This document shows positions 1,078 to 63,800 of a DNA stretch of 64,000 nt, piece by piece. The notes under the pieces are model-generated. The model was given only the letters and a program-made list of their open reading frames with translations. It did no database searches and was not told where the DNA came from. Position 1 is the stretch's first letter. Each line of letters starts with the position of its first letter. The stretch is taken from NCBI GenBank assembly GCA_964016885.1, contig OZ024764.1:8308001-8372000 (forward strand), given 5' to 3'. This DNA comes from Eledone cirrhosa. Lineage: Eukaryota. The translations under genes were made by a program, and so were the position numbers.

Positions 1078-1545
1078 GGATATGGTTGTGTGGTTAAAGT
1101 CTTTGCCTCATAACCACAAGGTTCAGGGCTCAAACCCCCTCCCTGTACATGTTGGCTGTGTGGTTAAAGTGTTTGCTTCATAACCACAAGGCTCAGGGCT
1201 CAAGCCCCCTGTACATGTTGGTTGGTTAGTGGTGGCTGTGTGGTTAAAGTTTTTGCCTCATAACCACAAGGTTCAGGGCTCAAGCCCCCTGTACATGTTG
1301 GTTGGTTAGTGGTGGCTGTGTGGTTAAAGTTTTTGCCTCATAACCACAAGGTTCAGGGCTCAAGCCCCCTGTACATGTTGGTTGGTTGGTTAGTGGTGGC
1401 TGTGTGGTTAAAGTTTTTGCCTCATAACCACAAGGTTCAGGGCTCAAGCCCCCTGTACATGTTGGTTGGTTAGTGGCAAGATGTCTTCTATTATAGTCTC
1501 AAGTGAGAGGAATGTTGAAACAGAGACCCAGAAGAAGCCTGTCAT
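1078..1545 (+). mobile_element. tRNA-derived SINE whose head is tandemly amplified (~80-bp unit, 5 copies)
   Basis: The unit ggtggctgtgtggttaaag...ggttcagggctcaagcccc carries A/B-box-like motifs. The last unit runs into a SINE body (ggcaagatgtcttctattatagtc). Confidence 0.7.
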
Positions 1546-1685
1546 ATGATATTTTATACACCCAATTGATTCAGGAAGATGTTAGAAGGAATTACTACTA
1601 AAATTATTAATTATTTCATTACTAAGATACTAAGATAGTAACTTAACAGGTGGTTCTTATATAAAATTATGTTGGAAGATTTTAA

Positions 1686-1800
1686 TTTTACCCTTTAGCA
1701 TTATCCGGCCAGAATTCTCTCATCTCTTTCTGTTCAAACTGGTTGTAACCAGCTGCTCATACTGATGTTAAGGTATTGTTCTCAAAATAAATAATATAAA
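1686..1800. mobile_element. Terminus of a piggyBac-like MITE (single unamplified copy)
   Basis: ccctttagcatt terminus. It is the reverse complement of the 93-bp satellite monomer at 9321-10996. Confidence 0.6.
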
Positions 1801-2299
1801 AATCTCTTAGATTTGATATTATGTGAGATATAAAGTCATTACAATGAAAATATAAAAGTAAATATAGAGTAATGTAAATGCTAAATGTTTCAATTAAAAT
1901 GAAGAATTTTGAGAGATTTACTAAAATTGTTTATTATTTCATTATTAAGATAGTAACTTAACATGTGGTTCTTATATAAAATTATGTTGGAAGATTTTAA
2001 ATTAAATAGGAACACTGTATTTCAATTAATTAATGAAGAATTTTCAGAGATTTACTAAAACTATTAATATTGCAAGATACCAACTTGACATACAGTTCTT
2101 ATATAAAATTATGTTGGAAGGTTTTAATATAAATAGTGACACTGTATTTCAATTAATTAACAAAGAGTTGTTTATTAAAAAAGAGTTGATTAAAATTATT
2201 ATTTCATTACTAAGATAGTAACTTAACATGTGGTTCTTATATAAAATTATGTTGGAAGATTTTAATTTAAATAGAAACACTTTAAAACAGGTGGCTTTG

Positions 2300-2705
2300 T
2301 TTCATAGAACCAGAGATATATTTGGCCAGGTTGGTACCAAAAGGGTTAAATAGAAGCCCTTGAAATTGGGAGATTATGTTCCATAGAACCAGAGATAGTT
2401 TTGGCCAGGTTGGTACCAAAATGGTTAAATAGAAGCCCTTGAAATTGGGAGATTATGTTCCATAGAACCAGAGATAGTTTTGGCCAGGTTGGTACCAAAA
2501 GGGTTAAATAGAAGCCCTTGAAATTGGGAGATTATGTTCCATAGAACCAGAGATATATTTAGCCAGGTTGGTACCAAAAGGGTTAAATAGAAGCCCTTGA
2601 AATTGGGAGATTATGTTCCATAGAACCAGAGATAGTTTTGGCCAGGTTGGTACCAAAAGTATTAAATAAGAACCCTATAAAACAGGTGGCTTTGTTTCAT
2701 AGAAG
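2300..2705. repeat. 79-bp minisatellite (~5 copies) containing a MITE-like terminus (aaagggttaa)
   Basis: catagaaccagagat recurs at 2382, 2461, 2540 and 2619. Confidence 0.88.
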
Positions 2706-2762
2706 CAAAGCTGGTTTAAGGGCCCGGTTTGAGTTTTAGTTTGGGTGGGAGTATGGAAAGTG

Positions 2763-5468
2763 TTAAATATCTGCAGGTGGGACAGTTAGCAGCCCTGTAG
2801 ATTTCAGCACATCAATGCCATGATGGAGGGCGCACACACGAGGGCAACCGAGGGCCACAAGAGAATTAGCAAAATCCGACATGGTCTTGACAAGGGTTCC
2901 TATTACTACCTTGACCTGAAGTCGGTGGTTGGTGAGGATTTGGGCCATCTGTGTTGAGGTGAGGGTCCCGTCAGCATTGAAGGCGTTCTGGAAGGGAATG
3001 TTAATACTGCCAGGAATGGTGCCTCGTTTGAAATCTTCTGAGGATCTTATATCTATGACCAACAACTTGGGTTTCGCAGTCGAGCTCCTCATGTCAGCAG
3101 CCGTCCTCAGTTCCCCGAGGTCAATCAAATCTTCGGCCGATATCCTTGGACATTTCTCCACCTTCAGTTCCTCGATGGGAATGTTGTCTTTGGTGAGGTC
3201 GTGGTTGGCTACAGAGGTGGTCAGCTGGTGGCTGTATTCTTTGGGGAAGTAAGATGCGGTGGTTGTTGTTGTCGCTGTTGTCCGTGAGTGAGACCACGTT
3301 GCTTTCTTCGAGACGTGGGCATGCTGGCGAAATGTGGCACTCTTTGGCGTGCTGCAGAAGATCTTGATGGAGTCCTGGACGCATTTTTCGATGTCAATTT
3401 CAGGCATGTCGGAGAAGAGGAGGATACAATCATTGAAGCCGTATGCTAGCAATCCGTCTCGGAGCTGGTGGAGAATAGCAACACCAATGCACAGCGGAAA
3501 CGATGAGTTTCCGAGCAACAGGGTGTCCCAGAGGTGGACGATCTTGTGCAGCGGGAATACATGGGCATACATTGTTAGGAACCAAGGAATGGCGTACAGG
3601 TCTGGAATGAAGCCGATGGTGTCAAGGTGGTTACTCAATTCTGGGTCATGATAGGCAATCAAGTGAGAAAAAACAGCTAGATATTCCTGAATAACAGGTG
3701 AATTGTCTTTCAGGAAGAACTTGTTCAGGTATTTCGGTATGAAAGCATCAAGACAGGCAAACGCAAGGGCTTCGTTATTGAAATTCAGGGCCAGGAATGG
3801 AGCACACAGAGAATCAAGACCTTGCCAGTACACATACTCTGAATGACTGATTATCCAGGCTTTTAGAATCCTTTTGAATTTTCTATGGGCTTCAGGTGAT
3901 GAGAGGAGTTCATGGTACTGGTGACAGCGGGGTATGTCCACTTCTATCTGTCGGTCAGTCGGTGTAGGGGTCTCCTTATCAATGGAATCATAGCGGGCTT
4001 GGATGTCTCCTTCCACCTCAAGTAGGGCTGACCAGACCTGGGCACGGTACAGTGGTGGTGTGTCGACTCTGGCTTCTCTCCAGATGTGGGCCTTCTTAAA
4101 CGGGTAGCCCTTCAGCAGGCGTTCATATAGAATGATGCGGTGGAACTGGTACTCCACGTCTTTCTCTCGAATGATGAGGGGCAGCGTGGCTGCCTGAGAC
4201 AGGTCTCCACTGCTTGGAGATGTCGGCAGACCCCTCAACATTTCTTTCTCGTCCTCCAACAGCGGGTAGTAGCAAGCATCTCCAACAGCCCTCAGTCTGT
4301 CTCTAAGCTGTTCCTGGGACAACATAATTATCGTGTTGTCCAAGAGTTCGGATTGGTCGCGTTTTTGACCAAACCATTCGCCGGTGTTTAAGATAAAGCA
4401 CGGCAAGAGTGTAACCGGTGGCCGCGATTTAATTAAGCCGGCGCGCTTAAGGACAGACTCAAGGTCTCCCCCAGCCAGTCTCCACAGGTAATAAACCTCC
4501 TCCATCGTGCGTTGAGAGAGTTTGTCGGTTTTCTTCATCAGTGCTATTTGGACCTCAGTGGGGAGCTCCAAATGCCGTAGGTCGACTTTACTGCTGAAGA
4601 ACTGGATGCCGTTCATGTACGGAACCTCCGGTGGCACTTTCACGGCAAATGCTTCATGCTGGAGCAATTCCAAGGGGGACAAGCGGTCTTTGGGATTCAG
4701 CGTTAGACATTTGCGTAATATGTCGAGCATCGCTGGGGAAATTTCCTTCGTGACGTCTTCTAGCTTGTTGTCCTTCAAAATGATGTCGAAGGGTTCATAT
4801 TTCGAGGTGACGAAGGCGAGGATTTTGTTGATGGTTTGCTGCAGGGACAACGAAGGCCACAACTGGCACCCAGCTAACGCCTCCAGCAGGACGAGACCCA
4901 GGGACCAAACATCGATCTTCGGTCCTAGATTCGGTTGTACGATAGCATTGCTGTATTCATCAACCACCACAGGGCCTGCACAGATCACCTCCGGTGCCAT
5001 GTAACGGACCAGACCAATGGGGTAGGCCACGTTCTGCCCAGATTCAGTCATATAACTCATACCATATTTAGAAATCTTTACATTTCCTTCGTTATCAAAT
5101 AAAACAGTGTCAGGGCTTAAGTTCTTAATGATGATATTCTTCTTACTCAGATAATCAAGGCCTTGGGCAATATCGTAGGCCATATTCAACAGGTCCTCTT
5201 CGCTAGTGGGGACTTGGTCCTTAATCCGTTGCCTCAGATTCTGCTTGTAATGCTCGGCCACGACAATCAACCGCTCCTGTTTCCCACGCGATATGTGTAT
5301 ATACTTGCAGAGGCTGGGATGCTCCAAGGTGATCAGATACTGGAATTTACCCAATATCTTGATGGAGTTCGGAGTCAGAGGTAAACCATTTGCCCCGCAT
5401 TTGTCGTTCGGGTGACATGAGGCAAAAAACGTTGTCACACTAAACTCGGCTTCCCCCACCGCCGACAT
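2763..5468 (-). CDS. TBCK: TBC domain-containing protein kinase-like protein (pseudokinase + Rab-GAP TBC + rhodanese-like), 901 aa, single coding exon
   Basis: N-terminal CGANGLPLTPNSIKILG. Degenerate kinase motifs (IKNLSPD in place of HRDLKPE, KYG in place of DFG, APE kept). TBC fingers IEVDIPR and YWQG. C-terminal VIDIRSSEDFKRGTIPGSINIP rhodanese fold. Uninterrupted ORF. Confidence 0.96.
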   Translation of the reverse strand: MSAVGEAEFSVTTFFASCHPNDKCGANGLPLTPNSIKILGKFQYLITLEHPSLCKYIHISRGKQERLIVVAEHYKQNLRQRIKDQVPTSEEDLLNMAYDIAQGLDYLSKKNIIIKNLSPDTVLFDNEGNVKISKYGMSYMTESGQNVAYPIGLVRYMAPEVICAGPVVVDEYSNAIVQPNLGPKIDVWSLGLVLLEALAGCQLWPSLSLQQTINKILAFVTSKYEPFDIILKDNKLEDVTKEISPAMLDILRKCLTLNPKDRLSPLELLQHEAFAVKVPPEVPYMNGIQFFSSKVDLRHLELPTEVQIALMKKTDKLSQRTMEEVYYLWRLAGGDLESVLKRAGLIKSRPPVTLLPCFILNTGEWFGQKRDQSELLDNTIIMLSQEQLRDRLRAVGDACYYPLLEDEKEMLRGLPTSPSSGDLSQAATLPLIIREKDVEYQFHRIILYERLLKGYPFKKAHIWREARVDTPPLYRAQVWSALLEVEGDIQARYDSIDKETPTPTDRQIEVDIPRCHQYHELLSSPEAHRKFKRILKAWIISHSEYVYWQGLDSLCAPFLALNFNNEALAFACLDAFIPKYLNKFFLKDNSPVIQEYLAVFSHLIAYHDPELSNHLDTIGFIPDLYAIPWFLTMYAHVFPLHKIVHLWDTLLLGNSSFPLCIGVAILHQLRDGLLAYGFNDCILLFSDMPEIDIEKCVQDSIKIFCSTPKSATFRQHAHVSKKATWSHSRTTATTTTTASYFPKEYSHQLTTSVANHDLTKDNIPIEELKVEKCPRISAEDLIDLGELRTAADMRSSTAKPKLLVIDIRSSEDFKRGTIPGSINIPFQNAFNADGTLTSTQMAQILTNHRLQVKVVIGTLVKTMSDFANSLVALGCPRVCALHHGIDVLKSTGLLTVPPADI

Positions 5469-5568
5469 CGTTTCAGTTATAAATAAATAAATATATTATC
5501 AATATACATACATATATCTTTTTTACATATATTTTGGTAGCTTATAACCTCTCCAAGTTTCTTCAATG

Positions 5569-15210: not shown

Positions 15211-15278
15211 TCACATTATAAATATATATATATATACGATATATTAACAAATGGAAACTATATTTATAAAACCATATT

Positions 15279-15343
15279 TATTTCATTATACATATTTCAA
15301 GGACACCAAGTTAAATTATGGTGTGCTTTCATCAGATAAAATA
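15279..15343 (-). ncRNA. Type I hammerhead ribozyme motif (minimal stem III)
   Basis: TATTTTAT-CTGATGA-AAGCACACCA[loop]TGGTGTCCTT-GAAA-TATGT-ATA-ATGAAATA. Stems I and II pair and the core is intact. Confidence 0.8.
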
Positions 15344-15513
15344 TAATATAGAGCAGTTTTATAAATAAATTTTGACATACCCTTAAAGAATGCGACCATT
15401 ACTGTTGGAAGCTCCCGAATAGTGCTTTATATCAGTTATAAAAATATTTGCTTGTTGTATCCCAACAATTTAAATAGAACTTCTACATATATATATATAT
15501 ATTTATTAAAATA

Positions 15514-15580
15514 ACAGATTAAAGTTTAAGCAAAGAATCGCTGCTTTCACCCTTAACGGGATCTTCTGAAACTAACAAAG
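15514..15580 (-). ncRNA. Hammerhead-like motif with variant core CAGAAGA (left arm of inverted repeat)
   Basis: AGTTT-CAGAAGA-TCCC.GTTAA.GGGT-GAAA-GCA[loop]TGC-TT-AAACT. Confidence 0.5.
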
Positions 15581-15774
15581 ACCACATCTTAAACGACATC
15601 TTTTATACCATAAACGTGGTTCTGTCTTTGCGCGTAATTGTTTTCACCGCTCCTATTAATGACGTATTATTCTTTTTTCCCGTTCTTTGCCAGGGAACGT
15701 TTCCACGAACCAAAGTATCGTCTTCCTGTCTTCCTCCGGTTGCAACGTTTTTTGAAATATCCAGTTCTGCGTTT

Positions 15775-15850
15775 ACAGATTGACTTTGTTAGTTTCAGAA
15801 GATCCAGTTAAGGGTGAAAGCAGCGATTCTTTGCTTAAACTTTAATCTGT
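15775..15850 (+). ncRNA. Hammerhead-like motif with variant core CAGAAGA (right arm of inverted repeat)
   Basis: Same fold. Stem I is extended by acagattga/ttaatctgt. The arms at 15499-15580 and 15783-15865 are near-identical inverted copies. Confidence 0.5.
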
Positions 15851-16164
15851 TATTTTAATAAATATTTGCTCTACGGTTCATATATATTTGATATATATTT
15901 TCCTTATCGAGCCCTCTGGATTTTAGTCTTCAATTTTATTATTATTACTAATATATATATATATATATATATATTTATTTACACACACACATATAGACAC
16001 ACACACACACATATACCTAAATGAAAACTAAGTATTCAATAATAAGGAAAGAACCTACTATTTCTACCAACTTATTCTGTCTACAGTCATTTTACGGCAC
16101 CAGAGTCAGTCAAGAGCATATATAAGACGGAACGGTCGATAGTGTCAAAATACACACACATGAA

Positions 16165-17826: not shown

Positions 17827-18316
17827 CCCCTATGATTTTCAAATAATTCTGAAAATAATAAAAAATTCGGAAGCGATTAGTAAAATCATTTTCTTATCAT
17901 TAAGTCTTGTTTTGAACATAACAGAGGGTGGGGCCCTCCTAATTTGGCACACCCTCTCATAAATATATAAATTGGAAGAGGCTATGTAGCCGGTAAGAGT
18001 GCCAGGCACCATGAGTTGCGGACTTTTACGGTTAGAGTTAAAAGAATTTGAAATCTTTTCCACCATCAATCGTTAAAAAAACAAGTTAAAATCATTTAAT
18101 CGTCCATTGGTAACGTACCTTACACTTTAGTTACATACACCATCACCATCATCTTCGTTTAACGTCCATTTTCCACGCTGGCATACACGTAAATACATAA
18201 ACAGGTAGACAACAGAAGGAAGTGGCTGGTGAAACGCTATAGCGATGTGTATTGCGTCCATTTAGGGTTTACCGGCTAGGGGGGTTATTTATATAGATAT
18301 AAATGTATCTATTTAC

Positions 18317-18757
18317 CTTTATTCAAAGCTTCTATAGAGATTTTCACCAGTTTCACCGGAACAATGATACCACGACTTTTTTCGACTTTCTGGTCCTTAT
18401 TATTGTCACCATTGTTGCTGTTGCTGTTACTATTGTTGCTGTTACTGTTGTTGCTGTTACTATTGTTGCTGTTACTGTTGTTGCTGTGACTATTGTTGCT
18501 GTTACTGTTGTTGCTGTTACTGTTGTTGCTGTTACTGTTGTTGCTGTTACTGTTGTTGCTGTTACTATTGTTGCTGTTGCTGTTCTGGGGCTCAGGTATA
18601 CGGAGTAATTTACTCAGTTCTTGCTTCACCGATTCTTCCAGGTGTTCGCTCCCTAAAGATTCCTGCAAACAGTCCTGGAGTCGCTGGGACAAAAGGACCT
18701 CTGGCACATACATTATACTGTCCCTCTGTCTCTCTAGCTGTTGTTGTACGTCGCTCT
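18317..18757 (-). CDS. Unknown gene, coding exon 3 (includes Asn/Ser repeat)
   Basis: Open frame SDVQQQLERQRDSIMYVPEVLL...ESLGSEHL...(NSNSN)n...EALNK. Donor AAAG|GTAAAT. Confidence 0.7.
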
Positions 18758-44578: not shown

Positions 44579-45632
44579 GTTCGATAACTGGAAGGTTGTT
44601 CATATATTGTCAAAGCTTTTACCTCACACATTCTGTGAACCTCCACAGTGGCTGATTTCTCATTTTGTGTCTCTCCTTTGTTCTGTCCTACACTATCTTG
44701 TTTTTGTGTGTTGTGTGCTGTCACACTGCCTGACAGTGCTCCTTAGCATACCGTTCCATGTGTTTCCGTCTGTTGATCTCACTTGGACCAAGCCAAACCT
44801 AGCTTTATCCCAATGTACATCCTCCATCCAAGTCCTTTTTGGTGTTCCTGGGCCTCTACTGTCTCCCAGATCGACATTCCAAACCTCCGCTGCTTTGTTG
44901 CTATATCCATTTATAGAAAAAGCTTCAGGAGCAAACCTTGAAGATCCAGATACAACCAGTTTAAATGCTAAAGGGTTAAAAGGGGATACTTTTTCAGATA
45001 GTCATCATATATATTATGTGACAGAACAAAACACTTGCTTGACAGTTTCTTATAAAAATGTTTAGATTTACAGATCAAACCAACCTCTGCCCCTTTTGCT
45101 GTGTTCAGAGTTACTTTTGGGATCAATTGTATTTGGCAAGCTCCCTAATTCTTCAGATATGGCCCCCTTCTGACTTCATGTTGTTTCCAGTTTAACCCTT
45201 TAGCATTTACATTACTCTATATATACTATTGTATTGTCACAGTAAAGGCTTTACCTCACATAATACCTCACATAACATTTACATTACTCTATATATACTA
45301 TTGTATTTTCACAGTAAAGGCTTTACCTCACATAATATCTCACATAACATTTACATTACTCTATATATACTATTGTATTTTCACAGTAAAGGCTTTACCT
45401 CACATAATATCTCACATAACATCTCGTATACGAGAGACGTGTGTTGACGTGTGTGAACAAGCTCGGCTACCGAGTCGGATTTACTTACTCAAAAAGTGAG
45501 TTTTGATTAATTTTTTATACTGTAATATACGTTAACCCCTTGCCTTGGTCGTCAAACTTTGAGTTTATTTATTTTCGCCCCTTTTTGGGGCGAATTTTCC
45601 AGTTAAAAATTTATTACGGCAAACTAATAGAA

Positions 45633-47378
45633 ATGGACGGAATTTTCACATCTCATCCTAACGTGAAAGCCACGCCCCCTAAGAAAGGTGATACAGAGAA
45701 GCTAGAAGCACAAGGCTCTAAGTCTTCCCTCCTCACTTCTGCAAAAGAAACATGGAACACGGAATTAAAAGAAAAATTTGTAGAAATGGGTGAAAACCCA
45801 GAAAGTCACATAAACGCAGACAAAAACATCAACGACAATAACAGCAATAGTCACAACACCAACCAAGGAAAAAATAACGATAACACCAAACAAAGTGAAC
45901 CCACTACTGGTACCTCCTTTGCACAGGCGGTCCGGAAAACACAAACCTGCAAGCAACTGGACATTACAACTCTGAGAGAAAAGATGAAGGAAGCGAAACA
46001 GTATGTAACTTTCAAAGAAGGAGGAGACTTCACAATCACCTCCCCACAAGAAATCAAAAGAGACACGACGCTAAGAACGATATCTTTCAGAACAATTTCC
46101 AACATAACAAGGAAACCAACTCAATTATCCCAAAAAGAGATTGAGCTGGTCCTAAAAAATGTGTGGAGTGATATATCGTTCATACAAAAAGGGCCACTCT
46201 ATGGGAATATAACGGTCCTAATGAAGGATCAATTGACGGCCAGGAAATACTCTGTGGCACCAATTGTTTCCAAGATATATACATTTTTCCCCACATATTT
46301 AGGGAAAAGAACGCAGAAGATAAGGGTCTCCGGAATCCGGCCAAATGCATGCATTTCCTGGGTACTAACAGGATTTTTAGAAGACGAGGACGGAATCCTC
46401 TCAGTAGGAGAAGTCACCACAGACGTTTTCGGCGGTTTGAGCGTGGAGGTTCTGGTCCAAATGAGACCAGAACGAATCGCTAGAATACCACAGAGGGTGT
46501 CCCTCGATGGAGAAACATTTATATATATTTCAGCCGAGGGTAGGAGGCCCATATGTTACTACTGTTCAAGCAGGGGTCATCTAAGGGCTGCTTGTCCTCA
46601 ATTGACAAAAAAAAAGGCTCTTTTGCCTACACCCCACACACCACCACCGCCACCACCACCACCTCCACCACCACCACCACCACCACCACAACAACAACAA
46701 CAAAAACAACAGGGAAAAATAACACAAGACACGGCCCCACCCAAAACAACTCCCAAAACACACACAAATACAACAAAACCCCAAAATACACCACTACCCG
46801 ACAGCACGGACGAGGACCCAGCGGAAACGGCACCTAGTGACGAAGAGGGGGAACCCTTCCAACCTGTAAAAAGGAAAAAAAGAAAGCACCACTCGAACAT
46901 AAACGAAACAAACACACAACCACCAACAAAAACAAAACAAACAGAACAAACAAAATCCGCCCCACCCCAAAACATAACACATACAACAAAACGTAAGCAC
47001 ACACAAGAACAACAAACAAACACAACACAAATAAAACAGTATACATACATTAACACAAATAACAAAGAACTAGTAAAAACAATACACAAAGACCCTTTGG
47101 TGGAAACTGAAGGGCAATTCTTTGCAAGCGCGGCCAACAAACCGCATTTAAAAATGATAAGACTCCCAATGGACACCTATGCAAAACTAAGAGAGAACTT
47201 TCCTGAGGACGTGGGGAAAACATGTACTCGACCCTATAACCGCGTCCTCTTGAAACGTTTCCCCACCCACACCTCACCAAACACCCCCACTCCACCACAG
47301 AACAACACCCCACCAAACAACCCCTCCAATACGCCCATGGATATTGTGCAACCTGCTCCTCAGGAGCCGAACAGGTAG
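45633..47378 (+). CDS. LINE ORF1p (CCHC zinc knuckle, Pro/Gln-rich C-terminal half)
   Basis: First ATG at 45633 and a CYYCSSRGHLRAAC knuckle. Confidence 0.88.
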   Translation: MDGIFTSHPNVKATPPKKGDTEKLEAQGSKSSLLTSAKETWNTELKEKFVEMGENPESHINADKNINDNNSNSHNTNQGKNNDNTKQSEPTTGTSFAQAVRKTQTCKQLDITTLREKMKEAKQYVTFKEGGDFTITSPQEIKRDTTLRTISFRTISNITRKPTQLSQKEIELVLKNVWSDISFIQKGPLYGNITVLMKDQLTARKYSVAPIVSKIYTFFPTYLGKRTQKIRVSGIRPNACISWVLTGFLEDEDGILSVGEVTTDVFGGLSVEVLVQMRPERIARIPQRVSLDGETFIYISAEGRRPICYYCSSRGHLRAACPQLTKKKALLPTPHTPPPPPPPPPPPPPPPPQQQQQKQQGKITQDTAPPKTTPKTHTNTTKPQNTPLPDSTDEDPAETAPSDEEGEPFQPVKRKKRKHHSNINETNTQPPTKTKQTEQTKSAPPQNITHTTKRKHTQEQQTNTTQIKQYTYINTNNKELVKTIHKDPLVETEGQFFASAANKPHLKMIRLPMDTYAKLRENFPEDVGKTCTRPYNRVLLKRFPTHTSPNTPTPPQNNTPPNNPSNTPMDIVQPAPQEPNR

Positions 47379-47399
47379 GTCCTTCCTCTTTTAACCAAC

Positions 47400-50300
47400 A
47401 TGGCTGATATAAGAGTTGGGTTTCTGAATGTACGTGGCCTGGGACTGTCTTGGAAACAAGGCAAACTTTTAAACGATCTCAGGTCACATAGAATGGATGT
47501 AATGGCTATTTGCGAGTCCAGGATCAGCAGCGAGCACCAACTGGCGCCCCTCTTCGACGACTTTGAGATCTTCGCATCTCTCTGTCAACCGGGGGGTGGG
47601 GGTGGAGTTGTCGTTCTGCTGCGAAAACACCTGGGCCTCGCCATACAGAAGGTGCACCTGGACCCGGAGGGTCGACTGGTGGTTTTAGACGTCGGCAGTA
47701 GTGAAAGTGGAGCCCTTAGACTAATAGCTGTGTACGCCCCTTTTTGGGCAGCGCGGCCGGAATACTTCCAACGTCTGGAAACTTTTCTGGGAACGTCCCG
47801 CTCCTTGCTTTTAGTGGGGGACTGGAATGGTATCCTGGATGCACGTTGGGACTATGTAGGGGCATGTGCCAATAGAGGGGGGTGTAAAAGCCTCAAAAGG
47901 TTAATCGGCCGATTTGACCTGGCCGATAGATATCGACTAGATTTTCCGACTGTACCACTATGGACGTGGACCAATCGCAGTGGAACATCTAGGTCGTACC
48001 TAGATAGGGTCCTAGTTAGAGAGAACGATAGGGACACATTTAGCTGTCCAAAAATGTTCATGGTTGACTATTCGGATCACAAGTTAGTGACCTGCATAGC
48101 CAACCTTGATAGAACCCATAGACAGGGACCCGGTTACTGGAAGCTGAACTTGTCCTTACCGAGAAGCAAAGCTTACAGTAAACGGATTAGCACGTTAGTT
48201 AAGCAGAATTTGACAGGGGCAATTGTCAACAACAGGTGGTGGAGCTCTCTTAAGAGAGCAATTAGAATAGAATCGATAGGTTTTAGTCAGGAATTAGCAA
48301 GGGATAGGAACAAGACGGAAAGGGAATTAGTAGATAGAGTAGAAGAGGCGATTAGGAGTGGCAATGTAGCCGGCGTGCTGGCATCAAGAATGGCCTTAGA
48401 CCAGTTCTTTGAGGTGAAGCATGAAGGCTGCGTTGTCAGGAGTAAAATACGTGCTCTGGGTAATGAGGGAGCCAAAGCTGTAAGCTGGGCCCGAGTGACA
48501 GAGGCAAAAAGTGGGAACAAGTCCACGATTCGGTCTTTGAAGGACCAGGATGGGCGTGTGATCCTTGAACCTGGGCAGATGTGTGCGGCCTTTCAGCGGC
48601 GCTTTGCACGACTGTTCGAGAGGGGCGGCGCGCCGGGTGAGACTATGGATTTCAATCCATACCTCGACGGTCTGCCGCGCCTCTCGGACGCGGAGGCGAA
48701 GTCCTGCGAAAGGACGATTTCAGCTGCTGAGATAGGGGCGGCGCTGAGCCAATGCGGCAAACGCAAATCCCCGGGTCTCGATGGTCTACCATACGAGCTA
48801 TATGTAGCGATGCCGGACTTGTTCTCCGATATCCTCGAAGCGGTCTACTGCAACTGGCAGCAGAACGGGAGAATTCCCAGTTCTGTGACCAAGGGCGTAG
48901 TTACGCTGGTGAGGAAGGATGAGAACAAGGGGGATGACATAAGTAACTTCAGGCCCATAACTCTGCTAAATACAGAGTTAAAGATTTTGGCCAAGGTGTT
49001 AGCGAAGAGGTTGGCGCTTGTCGTTGGAAACCTGGTGGGAGAAGCGCAGACATGCGCAATCCCGTCCAGGTCCATTCACGACAATCTCCACCTTATGCGA
49101 TACATCATAGAGAGGGTAGGGAATGAACCCGGCTTTGGTGGGGCCCTGATCAACTTGGATCAATCTAAAGCTTTCGATAGGGTTGACCATCGTTACCTGG
49201 ATGCGGTGCTCGCGGCGGCAGGCTTCGGACCCGTTTTCAGGGGTTGGATTGCTGCGATGCACAGCAGCAACGTCTGCTCAAGGGTCAAGGTGAACGGCCA
49301 CCTCTCGGAGCCGTTCCAAATCATGCGATCCATCCGACAGGGATGCCCTCTCTCCTCCCTACTGTATGTGCTGGCTCTTGAGCCACTACTGCGGAAGTTG
49401 GAGCGGTTGCAGGGCATCCCTTTGGAACCGGGATTGCAGAAAGCGGCGTCGGCCTACGCCGATGACGTGACAGTAATGGTGTCGAAAACCTCGCAAATCG
49501 GTGAGATCGGCACCTTACTGGAGGAATATGAAAGGTTTACAGGAGCCAAGCTGAACCGGGACAAGTCCGTCGGTTTGCAACTCGGAACATGGAGAGGCAA
49601 ACCGATGCCCTCCAACGACGTCGTCGGACGCTGGACGGAGGGCCCGGTGAAGCTGCTTGGGGTCTGGTTCGGACCAGACCTCCAGGTGGAGAAAAACTGG
49701 AACGAGGTAACGGCCAGGGTGTTTGCACTCACCCAGAAGTGGGCCCAGTGCAAACTATCCCTGAAAGGTCGAGCGGAGGTGGCGAATACTTATATAGCAT
49801 CCGTCATCTACTACCGCTTGACCGTCGTGCCTTGCCCAGTGAAAAGACTCGCCAAAATGGAGTGCGCGCTGTTCCAATTTCTTTGGAACAAGCGGACCCC
49901 TTTGGTGAGGAGATCCATCTGCTGTCAACACCCTTCGAAAGGAGGGCTGGGGATGCCGTGGCTACAGATGCGTAAACACGCATTAAGGCTACGGCACCTC
50001 CAGGTATTCCTCACCGGTCAACCGGTGTGGGCCCCGTTTGTGAGGCGAGCCTTTCCCAGACTCGTCTCGCTCACCGAGCTGCAATCCTGGGTCAAGCAAA
50101 GACCGAGAAAAGTGGGCGACTGGCACATTGAATGTGCCCAGGCGCTCACGGCCCTCTGGAAAGCGGACCCGGCAATCAGTGGAGACTCCACCTCGACATT
50201 CTATAGAGGGTTGGTACGCAGCAGGTGCGACGATGCTCTCGGAGAAGCTCTAGGCATGGAGGAAGATGAACTGGCCAGTCTGTTCGGTAGGACGTTTGGC

Positions 50301-50837
50301 CCTGGACCGATGGACAACTTCCAAAAGTCCCTGGCTTGGCAGTGCTACCGAGGGGCTCTACCCGTTCGAGACAAGCTCCACAGGCATGGGAGCCTGGGTA
50401 GAGATCCTTTGAATAAGATCTGTCCGAGATGCGTGCATGATGACGAAACCGTTGCGCACGCATTCGTACACTGCCCAGGCATTGCTGACCTGTGGGGCTA
50501 TGTGGAACGACTACTGTCTAGGGTGGGACCAATCCGGTTGACCACCGAGTCCATTGTCACGATCAAACCGCCTCCCCCTTTCAAAAACGAAGGAGAGGCA
50601 GTTTTTCTCTGTGTGGTAGCCATGGCTAAAGAAGTTGTATGGTGGACGAGGCTGAAAGGGCTGAGGTCAGACACCTTTCTCTCCGGCCAACAACTGGTCC
50701 CCTTTTTCAAATACCATTTTAAAAGAAGGATCAGAATGGAGAGAGAGGTGCTCTACCCCAGCAAGTTTTATGAAAGGTGGGTGAAAGTAGGGAGAATGGC
50801 CAGAGTGAATGGGTCTTCTCTCTATATCAGCCTGTAG
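47400..50837 (+). CDS. LINE ORF2p (APE endonuclease + reverse transcriptase + C-terminal Zn motif), 1145 aa
   Basis: LNVRGL, GDWN, YLDR, SDH; SPGLDG, FRPITLLN, LDQSKAFDRV, RQGCPLS, YADD; CPRC..ETVAHAFVHC. Confidence 0.95.
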   Translation: MADIRVGFLNVRGLGLSWKQGKLLNDLRSHRMDVMAICESRISSEHQLAPLFDDFEIFASLCQPGGGGGVVVLLRKHLGLAIQKVHLDPEGRLVVLDVGSSESGALRLIAVYAPFWAARPEYFQRLETFLGTSRSLLLVGDWNGILDARWDYVGACANRGGCKSLKRLIGRFDLADRYRLDFPTVPLWTWTNRSGTSRSYLDRVLVRENDRDTFSCPKMFMVDYSDHKLVTCIANLDRTHRQGPGYWKLNLSLPRSKAYSKRISTLVKQNLTGAIVNNRWWSSLKRAIRIESIGFSQELARDRNKTERELVDRVEEAIRSGNVAGVLASRMALDQFFEVKHEGCVVRSKIRALGNEGAKAVSWARVTEAKSGNKSTIRSLKDQDGRVILEPGQMCAAFQRRFARLFERGGAPGETMDFNPYLDGLPRLSDAEAKSCERTISAAEIGAALSQCGKRKSPGLDGLPYELYVAMPDLFSDILEAVYCNWQQNGRIPSSVTKGVVTLVRKDENKGDDISNFRPITLLNTELKILAKVLAKRLALVVGNLVGEAQTCAIPSRSIHDNLHLMRYIIERVGNEPGFGGALINLDQSKAFDRVDHRYLDAVLAAAGFGPVFRGWIAAMHSSNVCSRVKVNGHLSEPFQIMRSIRQGCPLSSLLYVLALEPLLRKLERLQGIPLEPGLQKAASAYADDVTVMVSKTSQIGEIGTLLEEYERFTGAKLNRDKSVGLQLGTWRGKPMPSNDVVGRWTEGPVKLLGVWFGPDLQVEKNWNEVTARVFALTQKWAQCKLSLKGRAEVANTYIASVIYYRLTVVPCPVKRLAKMECALFQFLWNKRTPLVRRSICCQHPSKGGLGMPWLQMRKHALRLRHLQVFLTGQPVWAPFVRRAFPRLVSLTELQSWVKQRPRKVGDWHIECAQALTALWKADPAISGDSTSTFYRGLVRSRCDDALGEALGMEEDELASLFGRTFGPGPMDNFQKSLAWQCYRGALPVRDKLHRHGSLGRDPLNKICPRCVHDDETVAHAFVHCPGIADLWGYVERLLSRVGPIRLTTESIVTIKPPPPFKNEGEAVFLCVVAMAKEVVWWTRLKGLRSDTFLSGQQLVPFFKYHFKRRIRMEREVLYPSKFYERWVKVGRMARVNGSSLYISL

Positions 50838-60065: not shown

Positions 60066-60869
60066 GTATCATCATCATCATCATCATCAGGTTTAGCGTT
60101 CGTGTTCCACGCTTGCATGGGTTTGGACGGGGGTTTTCCCACTTGAGGCAAGAGTGATTGTCTTGCTCGCATAGGACTGTCTGGCGGGTTTTCTACAGTT
60201 GGATGCCCTTCCTAACACCAACCACATTTACAGTGTGGGGCTGGGAGGTTTTTACCGTGTTGCCTACACGGCCACATTACAGCGTGGACTGTCTGGCTGG
60301 TTTTCTACAGCTGGATGCCCTTCCTAACACCAACCACATTTACAGTGTGGGGCTGGGAGGTTTTTACCGTGTTGCCTACACGGCCACATTTACAGCGTGG
60401 ACTGTGTGTTTTTTGTCGTGACACCTACACGATCTCATTTGTTTCGGCCTGGATGTTGTGGGACCAACATAACTTTACATTGAAAGGGGCGGTGTGGGTG
60501 GGGTGGAGGTGGTGGGACGGGGGGGTGTTTTGATAGAGGTGCCTACTGACTGTAGTAGGTTTTTACTTTGTATTTAGGTAAGGCAGGTCTTCTCTATTAC
60601 TGAGTACCGCCAAAGGTCTCGGTCCAGTATATATCATCATCACCATCATCACCGTTTTACGTCCGTTCTTCCACGCTAGCATGGGTTAGACGGGTTGTCC
60701 TGTTGTGGGCAGTGTCTGGTCGGCTGACCATGCCTTGCTCATACAGGAACTGATCTGGCTTGATTTCTACAGCTGGATGCCCTTCCTAACACCAACCTCA
60801 TTTACAGTGAGTGCTGGGTGCTTTTTCGTGGCGCCTACACGTCCACTTTACAGTGTGGGCATGTATATA

Positions 60870-63800
60870 TACATCAACTGGAAAAAAACATTCGAGCTAT
60901 CACCCAGCACCACCCTCCACTATCACCCCACTGCACAAACTCCCATTGCTGCCATTAACAAACAAACAAATTAACAACACACCAAAACAATTAAAACCAT
61001 CCACTCTCGCCTCTACATTTTTGCTTAACGCCCAAGGCATCAGCCCTTCCACCAATACTAAAAAATGGAAGATCAAATTCCTGGAGGACTGGATTGATGT
61101 CCATCCAAACCACATCCCTTTCTTCGTCCTCACTGAAACCCATCTCTGTAACCTCCACTTGGAAGCCGAGGTGAAAGTGAAAAATTTCAAAGCCATCCGT
61201 GCTGATCGCGCTGGCAGAAGAAAGGGCGGAACTGCCATTTATGTCCATAATTCTTTCTCAACAGAGGCTATGAACATATTCACTAATGGATACTGTGAAG
61301 CAGTCACTGTATTCAGTCAAACCAACAACCTATTAGTAGTTGGGCTCTATAGGCCACCCCAAACGCCTGTACCATGCTTCAAGGAATGCCTCAACAGCAT
61401 AAAGTGTTTCATCCAAGAGTGTCACCCTGACAACATCTTAATGATGGGGGACTTCAACCTCCCCGGAGTTGACTGGTCCACAAACAGCCTGCCACCAGGT
61501 TCTTCTGCCTCAACCTCTGACAGGGAAGCTGTGGAATCGCTTCTTGACTTCATGGATGATTTCTTCCTATCCCAACTGGTGCTCGAACCAACGAGGTGCC
61601 ACAAAAACGTCCTAGACTTAATTTTCAGCAATCACACTGACAATATCCACAATATTGCAGTGGAGAAAACTCTACTCTCTGATCATGACATGGTTCTCTG
61701 TGATCTGAGATTCCACCGTCCAATATACAAACCCAATGTCATCTCTCCTGTCCATCCGTTTGACGCTATGGATTTCCACAATGCAAACTGGGAAGCGATC
61801 AGTCATGATCTTGCACATGTCGACTGGTCCTTCACGCACACTCATACACCCACTAACATCAAAAAGTCCTGGCAGACATTTGTGGACACTGTTACAAACA
61901 TATGTGCTAAACACACCCCATTAAGAACTATAAACAAATCTAAGAGCAGAATCCCTAGAAATAGAAAAACGCTCATCAGAAAAATTAAGAGAACGAACAA
62001 AAAAATCAACAAGCTGAAATACTGTCAGCAGCAACACATCAACTTGACTGCCATTTCATCACTAGAGATTAAAAAACATAACCTCCAAAACAACATAATG
62101 TCCCTCATCAACAATCAGAGAAGAGCTGAAGAGGCCTGGGCCATTGAGAAGATCAAACTCAATCCCAAAGTGTTCTTTTCATTTGCAAAAAAACACAAAA
62201 TCACTGGCTCTACTGTTGGCCCTCTAATTGATGAAAATGGCACTCTTCAAGACAATGCTAAAACCATGGGTGAGATACTGCAGAAACAATACTGCTCTGT
62301 TTTCAGCAATCCTGATATGGCCGATCTGGGCTGTATCGGCGATGTTACTCCCCATTACACCTTATCGGACATAACGTTTGGCGCCCCTGATGTCTTGGCG
62401 GCAATAAAGGAAATCAAGCATAATTCAGCAGTAGGTCCCGATAGGTTCCCTGCTTGTGTCTTGAAGGCGTGTCAACACCAACTTGCTTCTCCTCTTGCCA
62501 ATCTGTGGCGGAACTCACTGGATGCTGGATATGTGCCAGAAAACCTTCTATCCCAGTCTGTTGTCCCAGTTTTCAAAAAGGGAAACAAATCCCTTGCCGT
62601 GAATTACCGTCCAATCTCACTCACCTCTCATATCATTAAGGTATTTGAGCGAGTGGTGAGATCGCAAATGACCCACTTCCTTGAGAGTAACAATATGCTG
62701 AACTCCAACCAGCATGGATTCCGTAATGGAAGGGATTGCCTGACGCAACTACTGCATCACTTTGATGACATTTTGAGAGCCTTGGGAGAGGGTTCCAACA
62801 CTGATGTTATCTACCTTGATTTCAGCAAGGCCTTTGACAGGGTTGATCATAACATTCTACTGAGAAAGCTGTCCAATATTGGTGTCACTGGAAAGCTGCT
62901 GCAGTGGATCAAGAGCTTCCTGTCAAACAGAACCCAACATGTTGTAGTTGAGGGAGTCAAATCAAGCCCAGCCAAAGTCAGTAGTAGAGTCCCACAAGGC
63001 ACTGTGTTGGGCCCACTTCTCTTCATCATCTATATTAATGACATCACTGACATCATCAAACACAGCAACATTAAAATTTTCGCTGATGATTCCAAGCTCC
63101 AAAAGGTCATCAATGGCGTGGATGACCGGATAAGCCTTCAGTCAGACCTACTGGCTGTTACCCAATGGGCAGAAAAGAACAACATGTTACTGAACGAAGA
63201 CAAATTCGAACTGATCCACTTTGGAAAAGAGGATGCTCTGAAACTCCCGTACTCCCTTCCCTCCGGGGAAACTCTCGTGGCATCTAACAACATCAGAGAC
63301 TTGGGAGTAACCGTGGACAGCAACATAAGCTGGACCACGCATATAAGCAGCAAAGTTGACATGGCCCGCAGAATGTGTTCCTGGATCCTCAGAACCTTCC
63401 AGTCGAGAGATTCCCACACCATTATCCTTCTCTTCTCTACTTTCGCCTGACCACACCTTGAATACTGTTGTCCACTGTGGTCTCCCCACACGAAACAAAG
63501 TATCATGAAACTTGAAGCTCCTCAAAGGGCAATCACGAAAAAGATAGATGGCATGTCAGACCTTGACTACTGGGGTCGATTGGAAAACCTGAAACTTTAC
63601 TCACTCCAACGTCGCCGTGAGCGTTATATTATCTGCATGATGTGGAAAATGTTCCATCATCACTGCCCAAATGATGTTGGCATCGCCTTCAAGATACACC
63701 CAAGGCTTGGGCCCCGTGCTATCCGTCCCATTCAAAAATCTAAATCGCAACTCATAACAACAATACGGCACAATTATTTCACCTCAATCGGCCCTGCTCT

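Follow-up and report, generated by a model that had tools for sequence, protein, structure and literature searches.

An adenosine at hammerhead core position 4 is the common state of a probable Hydra-clade Penelope-like family in Eledone cirrhosa

A repeat family of Eledone cirrhosa, here called family B, carries a hammerhead-like motif in which core position 4 is A instead of U, and this substitution (U4A) is the state of the family, not decay. The change likely cripples cutting, yet it did not stop family B from spreading. The explanation that we regard as probable is that the family B motif is hammerhead-shaped, with A4 family-wide, that it likely cuts poorly or not at all and is likely kept as part of a terminal region used by the element's own protein, and that the locus at which it was noticed consists of two abutting truncated insertions.

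This locus lies within the window, i.e., the whole 64-kb stretch of DNA that was analysed. An earlier note, made from the letters of the window, had described three hammerhead folds there, one canonical and two with a CAGAAGA core in an inverted pair. All three are present: a type I descriptor relaxed at core position 4 gave 3 matches in the 64 kb, whereas 30 control sequences from a first-order Markov model gave 0.0 on average. The stems pair as that note had drawn them, except that one stem II pair of the plus arm is lost to a C>A change private to this copy. The features, in window positions, are as follows.

15234 to 15424, minus strand: 3' end of a family A element, assigned to the Hydra clade of Penelope-like elements, with terminal site 1 inside a (TA)n tract
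15279 to 15343, minus strand: canonical type I hammerhead of family A (motif 1), from sequence and descriptor; core CTGATGA from 15335, AUA site with residue 17 at 15287
15421 to 15490, plus strand: family A tail (the stretch from site 1 to site 2), inverted here and in line after the hammerhead in other copies
15485 to 15500, no strand: (TA)n target tract common to both insertions, from sequence
15499 to 15580, minus strand: short inverted arm of family B, site 1 end; variant hammerhead 15573 to 15523 (motif 2), core CAGAAGA at 15568 to 15562, residue 17 at 15528
15581 to 15594, plus strand: junction filler with a match in the family B ORF (3' part), and an identical string at the ORF end in locus L073
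15593 to 15951, plus strand: long arm of family B, element 3' end, with site 1 near 15865 and the tail reaching site 2 near 15951; variant hammerhead 15791 to 15841 (motif 3), core CAGAAGA at 15796 to 15802, residue 17 at 15836
15952 to 15975, no strand: (TA)n target tract at family B site 2, from sequence

The locus is thus composed of two truncated Hydra-clade Penelope-like insertions of different families that abut in a (TA)n tract, and is itself an ordinary pair of dead copies bearing ordinary private changes. The family B arms, at 15499-15580 and 15784-15865, are 82 nt each, 99% complementary and separated by 203 nt, in agreement with the inverted partial copy recognised before; the 14-nt filler at 15581..15594 between them would be explained by a template switch. 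What did not hold was the grouping of the three motifs into a single ribozyme cluster, given that the canonical motif belongs to another family, with ORFs only about 40% identical. Rfam scans gave no hammerhead match at the locus, missing the canonical family A motif as well, and the fold of family B is not that of minimum energy (z 0.40 and 0.28).

Across the ~3-Gb assembly, different sets of genomic repeats are matched by the canonical motif and by the variant pair: for family A, a 24-letter pattern has at least 4,252 exact matches, and for family B, a pattern that leaves core positions 4 and 7 free has 19,499. Family B contains intact ORFs of 709 aa in which RT catalytic motifs and YIG-type motifs are recognised (RT/GIY-YIG), and its variant motif occurs ~200 nt 5' of the start codon and then again 3' of the ORF. 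In locus L127, for example, the motif is found at 950 and 4407, flanking an ORF at 1137-3275, and L073 likewise has it on either side of the RT/GIY-YIG ORF. Searches with the family B protein returned 504 homologues (best identity 56%), one of which carries PF01541, and Pfam gave no match on the protein itself. Its translation contains RWR, DKT and CNCRNRADC and, compared by eye, is consistent with the Hydra alignment that supplements PMC8557442 (here and below, published sources are cited for the parts consulted). For family A, ORF pieces with RWR, DKT and CNCRNKSNC were recovered upstream of the motif in L115 and L119-L122, and no intact full-length ORF was found in the 9 loci examined.

Judging from these motifs, and for family B also from the alignment by eye, both families would belong to the Hydra clade of Penelope-like elements, and the Penelope origin proposed earlier is borne out by the Hydra-type RT/GIY-YIG ORFs linked to the motifs and by the (TA)n targets. 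Family B displays the Penelope traits of a pseudo-LTR tandem, an inverted truncated copy, a tail and (TA)n flanks; what it lacks is a canonical hammerhead in the pseudo-LTR, because of A4. Since the clade is defined by protein, we file family B as a Hydra member with a variant motif. The family A motif is by these measures a type I hammerhead (CUGAUGA/GAAA/UA), with an 8-bp stem I, a long stem II and a 3-bp stem III closed by a 2-nt loop, and is predicted to need a dimer; stem II varies among related family A subfamilies with its pairing kept. A non-LTR retrozyme was rejected as the source of this locus, where both families are ends of ORF-bearing elements with no tandem units. Two further candidates were discarded: a supposed sister family with 75% protein identity is a rearranged family B copy, and a stem variant in L049 is represented by 2 copies only.

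Other repeat families in the same genome share the layout of family B and have a canonical core. One of them, known by its motif, numbers 6,087 copies, with U4 in 99 of the 100 matches listed. No closer canonical-core sister of family B appeared among the matches listed for looser patterns or through the best outside homologue, the protein search being crowded by large families. Near families A and B, (TA)n tracts contain at least six more nested canonical-core families, and hammerheads with a U3-A8 covariant core occur in such tracts in L006, L084, L100 and L128. L283-L288 contain retrozyme-like arrays of ~430-bp units with a canonical hammerhead, some units having A at core position 4; A4 motifs of this array type number ~100 genome-wide.

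Within family B, core position 4 is A in 16,808 of 16,965 copies matched with stem I and stem II fixed. Among 100 listed copies of the 157 with another base, 40 have G, 34 T and 26 C, a mutation-like mix, and the T copies are spread over both old and young subfamilies. The 34 loci examined yielded 15 ORFs of 708-722 aa; six of these long ORFs retain the upstream motif, which reads CAGAAGA in 6/6, and the other nine have no motif within 260 nt. Of the two origins considered in the earlier note, a family-level variant is the one that the counts of A and non-A copies in the same context support: CAGAAGA is the consensus of the genomic copies, and a majority of CUGAAGA, which would have meant decay, was not seen. 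We also considered 852 genomic CTGAAGA matches as a canonical subfamily and rejected them as mostly mirror strands of fold-back junctions; in 30 loci with CTGA before the family B stem II, 22 were fold-back mirror strands, 8 were other junctions and none was native. Among the 190 loci scanned, B is the sole repeat family with A4 as its common core. In sequencing run X5, a few contigs of low depth had this core as well; they possibly derive from the same animal's DNA and were left uncounted.

In the scenario that we propose, U4A would have arisen once in the master lineage of family B and would have been tolerated because cleavage is unneeded for insertion. A fold-back hot spot is centred on the family B core position 4, within a TTC-A-GAA micro-palindrome (L061-L072 and L131-L160), and accounts for perfect inverted junctions by the several hundred, in which the mirror strand has CTGAAGA; U4A possibly originated by loop inversion at this palindrome. 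In listed family B copies changed at the first C of stem II, about a quarter have G, which is above transversion expectation, and these copies possibly form a small subfamily with a shifted stem II.

The ends of the copies bear on how such elements may insert. Copies of families A and B end at one of two fixed sites ~90 nt apart, and in 48/58 tail-out inverted pairs of family B one end is at site 1 and the other at site 2 (expected fraction 0.49, p ~1e-7), an approximate count that covers the loci examined, with noticed duplicates removed. The window follows this rule twice: the family B pair has a short minus arm to site 1 and a long plus arm to site 2, with a 14-nt piece of the element's own ORF between them, and the family A pair has a hammerhead arm to site 1 and an inverted tail to site 2, joined through a 4-nt microhomology. 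In another Penelope element, cutting and extension affect both strands of the target, and the tail is bounded by two internal positions at which reverse transcription begins (PMC11167929). By analogy, the two-site ends fit two-site initiation of reverse transcription: the element's endonuclease would nick both strands of (TA)n, reverse transcription of uncleaved RNA would be primed by each nick at one of the two sites, and the two resulting cDNAs would be linked through microhomology or by a short filler copied from a template, which would produce tail-out inverted pairs.

The family B motif has stems of 5 bp, 3 bp and 4 bp in type I order, with no compensatory changes within the family. Its stem III, 4 bp with a 9-nt loop, could fold as a monomer. 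Every position of the core CUGANGA ... GAAA ... UH is matched except U4, which is A. In 26 Hydra rows of File S2 in PMC8557442, U...U flanks on stem II are found in 14/26, U at the cut in 10/26 and CUGA in 26/26, and the U10.1-U11.1 mismatch is natural and tolerated (PMC3088659). Because U·U flanks and a cut-site U are common in published Hydra hammerheads, position 4 is the sole real departure of family B, besides its long loop III. From its sequence, the motif is thus very likely a hammerhead descendant.

The expected consequence of the U4A change can be approached from folding and from published mutants. The A at position 4 allows a competing helix to form between the two core strands (probability of the C3-G12 pair 0.26 vs 0.02 in a natural U4 copy), and the folding penalty is small, at 3.9 vs 3.4 kcal/mol, a gap of 0.5 kcal/mol. 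Single mutants of the CUGA turn all have low activity in the data of PMC9901934. In Poseidon, hammerhead mutants left insertion in vitro unaffected, and no RNA ends at the site were observed in the experiments reported in PMC11167929. As for copy starts, 626 family B copies begin at the predicted cut vs 952 at TT|AA, a control site 27 nt upstream, and in the canonical 6,087-copy family 46 start at the cut vs 35 at the control, so that this footprint does not separate active from dead motifs, and several of 30 inspected cut-site loci are local mutations instead of genuine starts. At a single locus, L281:1240-2150, family B forms six tandem 151-nt units, which begin at the predicted cut or one base from it at most and continue through the tail to reach into 5' UTR sequence. 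This array would count in favour of an active motif; it could have arisen through template jumping or later DNA amplification.

We then compared old and young family B subfamilies (18 old and 100 young alignments, many of the old copies picked by motif patterns). They differ at 0/51 positions in the motif, 0/23 in the spacer, 1/84 in the tail and 12/118 upstream, i.e., 12 subfamily-level changes in 118 nt upstream vs 1 in the 158 nt that stretch from motif to site 2. With three defining sites dropped, the contrast is 0/51 in the motif vs 9/115 upstream (Fisher p 0.033). In contigs from run X1, which are free of motif-based picking, motif variants are all at ≤7%, and six upstream sites vary at 15-51%. 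Since the spacer and tail are as conserved as the motif, the conservation signal belongs to the whole terminal region and is not ribozyme-specific. The intact remaining core positions and stems across subfamilies would also fit an active, selected ribozyme.

These data have to be weighed against the possibility that the motif has no role at all, having been killed by U4A too recently to have decayed. Young copies are indeed only ~1.5% off their subfamily majority (3-6% for old ones), the conservation test is weak, many old copies having been chosen by patterns within the motif, and Naiad elements spread without canonical hammerheads; nevertheless, the excess of upstream changes over those between motif and site 2 recurs in the contigs, where no motif picking was involved, and we consider such a relic improbable. 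A more serious contender, although still on the unlikely side, is that the A4 core is an active natural variant that is still selected, with slow or protein-assisted cleavage. The other catalytic residues and the stems are identical between subfamilies, and the 4-bp stem III with its 9-nt loop could allow folding as a monomer; in vivo, natural U4C (in a viroid) and further core variants remain active enough (PMC3088659), and cleavage by the anole Penelope hammerhead depends on its protein (PMC11167929). That a CAGA-core hammerhead truly cleaves, helped by a retroelement protein or an unseen tertiary contact, accordingly strikes us as conceivable but doubtful: in the comprehensive mutagenesis of PMC9901934, as far as consulted, no CUGA mutant was rescued except by a C3-G8 swap, the conservation extends across the non-ribozyme spacer and tail, compensatory stem changes that would show selection on the fold are absent from family B, and no other repeat family with a common A4 core was encountered in the 190 loci scanned.

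Two other readings fare worse. A chance resemblance, with no descent from a hammerhead, could draw on the absence of an Rfam match, on a fold that is not the lowest in energy and on three departures from the textbook consensus, but the Markov controls gave 0.0 matches, the motif occupies the usual position of Hydra hammerheads, 2/3 departures are clade-typical and Rfam misses the canonical A motif likewise, so that hardly any weight is left to it. Nor do we give more than slight credence to a joint action of the three motifs on a host pre-mRNA, e.g., by cutting the intron of a minus-strand gene. Two of the motifs are on the minus strand, as are a TBCK-like ORF downstream (2766-5495; an uninterrupted 910 aa with kinase, RabGAP-TBC and rhodanese domains, apparently intronless) and a possible coding exon upstream (18314-18712; an Asn/Ser repeat with a GT donor). 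Against this, the motifs come from two unrelated insertions, of families that both target (TA)n and often abut, and the window copies have ordinary private changes. The possible exon may resemble the start of TMEM199/Vma12; the search found no homologue of it, and neither a second exon linking to it nor flanking exons of one gene around the locus were identified. An effect on a host intron is unsupported, and the intron position given in the earlier note was not confirmed. Elsewhere in the window, LINE-type open frames lie on the plus strand at 45507-50837 (623 aa and 1,152 aa) and 60811-63450 (879 aa), and look endonuclease- and RT-like by eye.

Penelope hammerheads, Hydra elements and inverted copies are already known. 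The role of Penelope hammerheads is described as unclear, and they may parasitise the elements (PMC8557442). A natural U4A hammerhead core was not found in the text of the literature searched, including PMC11014351; an A4 variant may already be listed elsewhere. Family B offers a natural experiment, being autonomous, with many intact ORFs and one core change, beside canonical-core families in the same genome. If the A4 RNA is dead, a Hydra family would have reached ~17,000 copies without cleavage and with its fold kept, which argues that RNA shape or terminal sequence matters above catalysis. If instead it cleaves, a natural purine in the uridine turn, fixed in a ~17,000-copy family and invisible to CUGA-based searches, would mean that the hammerhead core rule at position 4, along with search descriptors, needs widening.

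Among known systems, family B is closest in build to the Hydra clade as presented in PMC8557442 (Craig et al. 2021). Both have a single ORF with RT plus a GIY-YIG at the C-terminus, the RW[KR], DKT and CxCX5C motifs, no CCHH in the endonuclease core and (TA)n targets; a hammerhead close to the 3' end, its short stem II flanked by U...U and its cut site often a U; and inverted 5'-truncated copies with a tail. They differ in the core, CUGA being present in all 26 rows and canonical hammerheads being called universal in that clade, whereas family B has CAGA, as well as in the tail (~90 nt in B vs 30-40) and loop III (9 nt in B vs 1-3). Identity with the listed Hydra-1_Obim was rejected, as hammerhead and N-terminus differ by eye. 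Poseidon, a green anole element (Frangieh et al. 2024, PMC11167929), resembles family B in its two fixed ends bounding the tail, its AT-rich targets and a hammerhead near the ORF start, and the cutting and extension of both DNA strands described for it would give the inverted pairs seen here; it belongs to another clade, however, with a canonical core and a hammerhead that overlaps the ORF, whereas the family B motif lies ~200 nt before the start codon. Finally, the natural core variants of Perreault et al. 2011 (PMC3088659) and the minimal Penelope hammerheads of Cervera and de la Pena 2014 (PMC4209133) are, like family B, type I with one core change; U4C is known from a viroid and U3-A8 from Penelope elements, whereas U4A, which is not named in the consulted text of these two papers, is fixed in family B.
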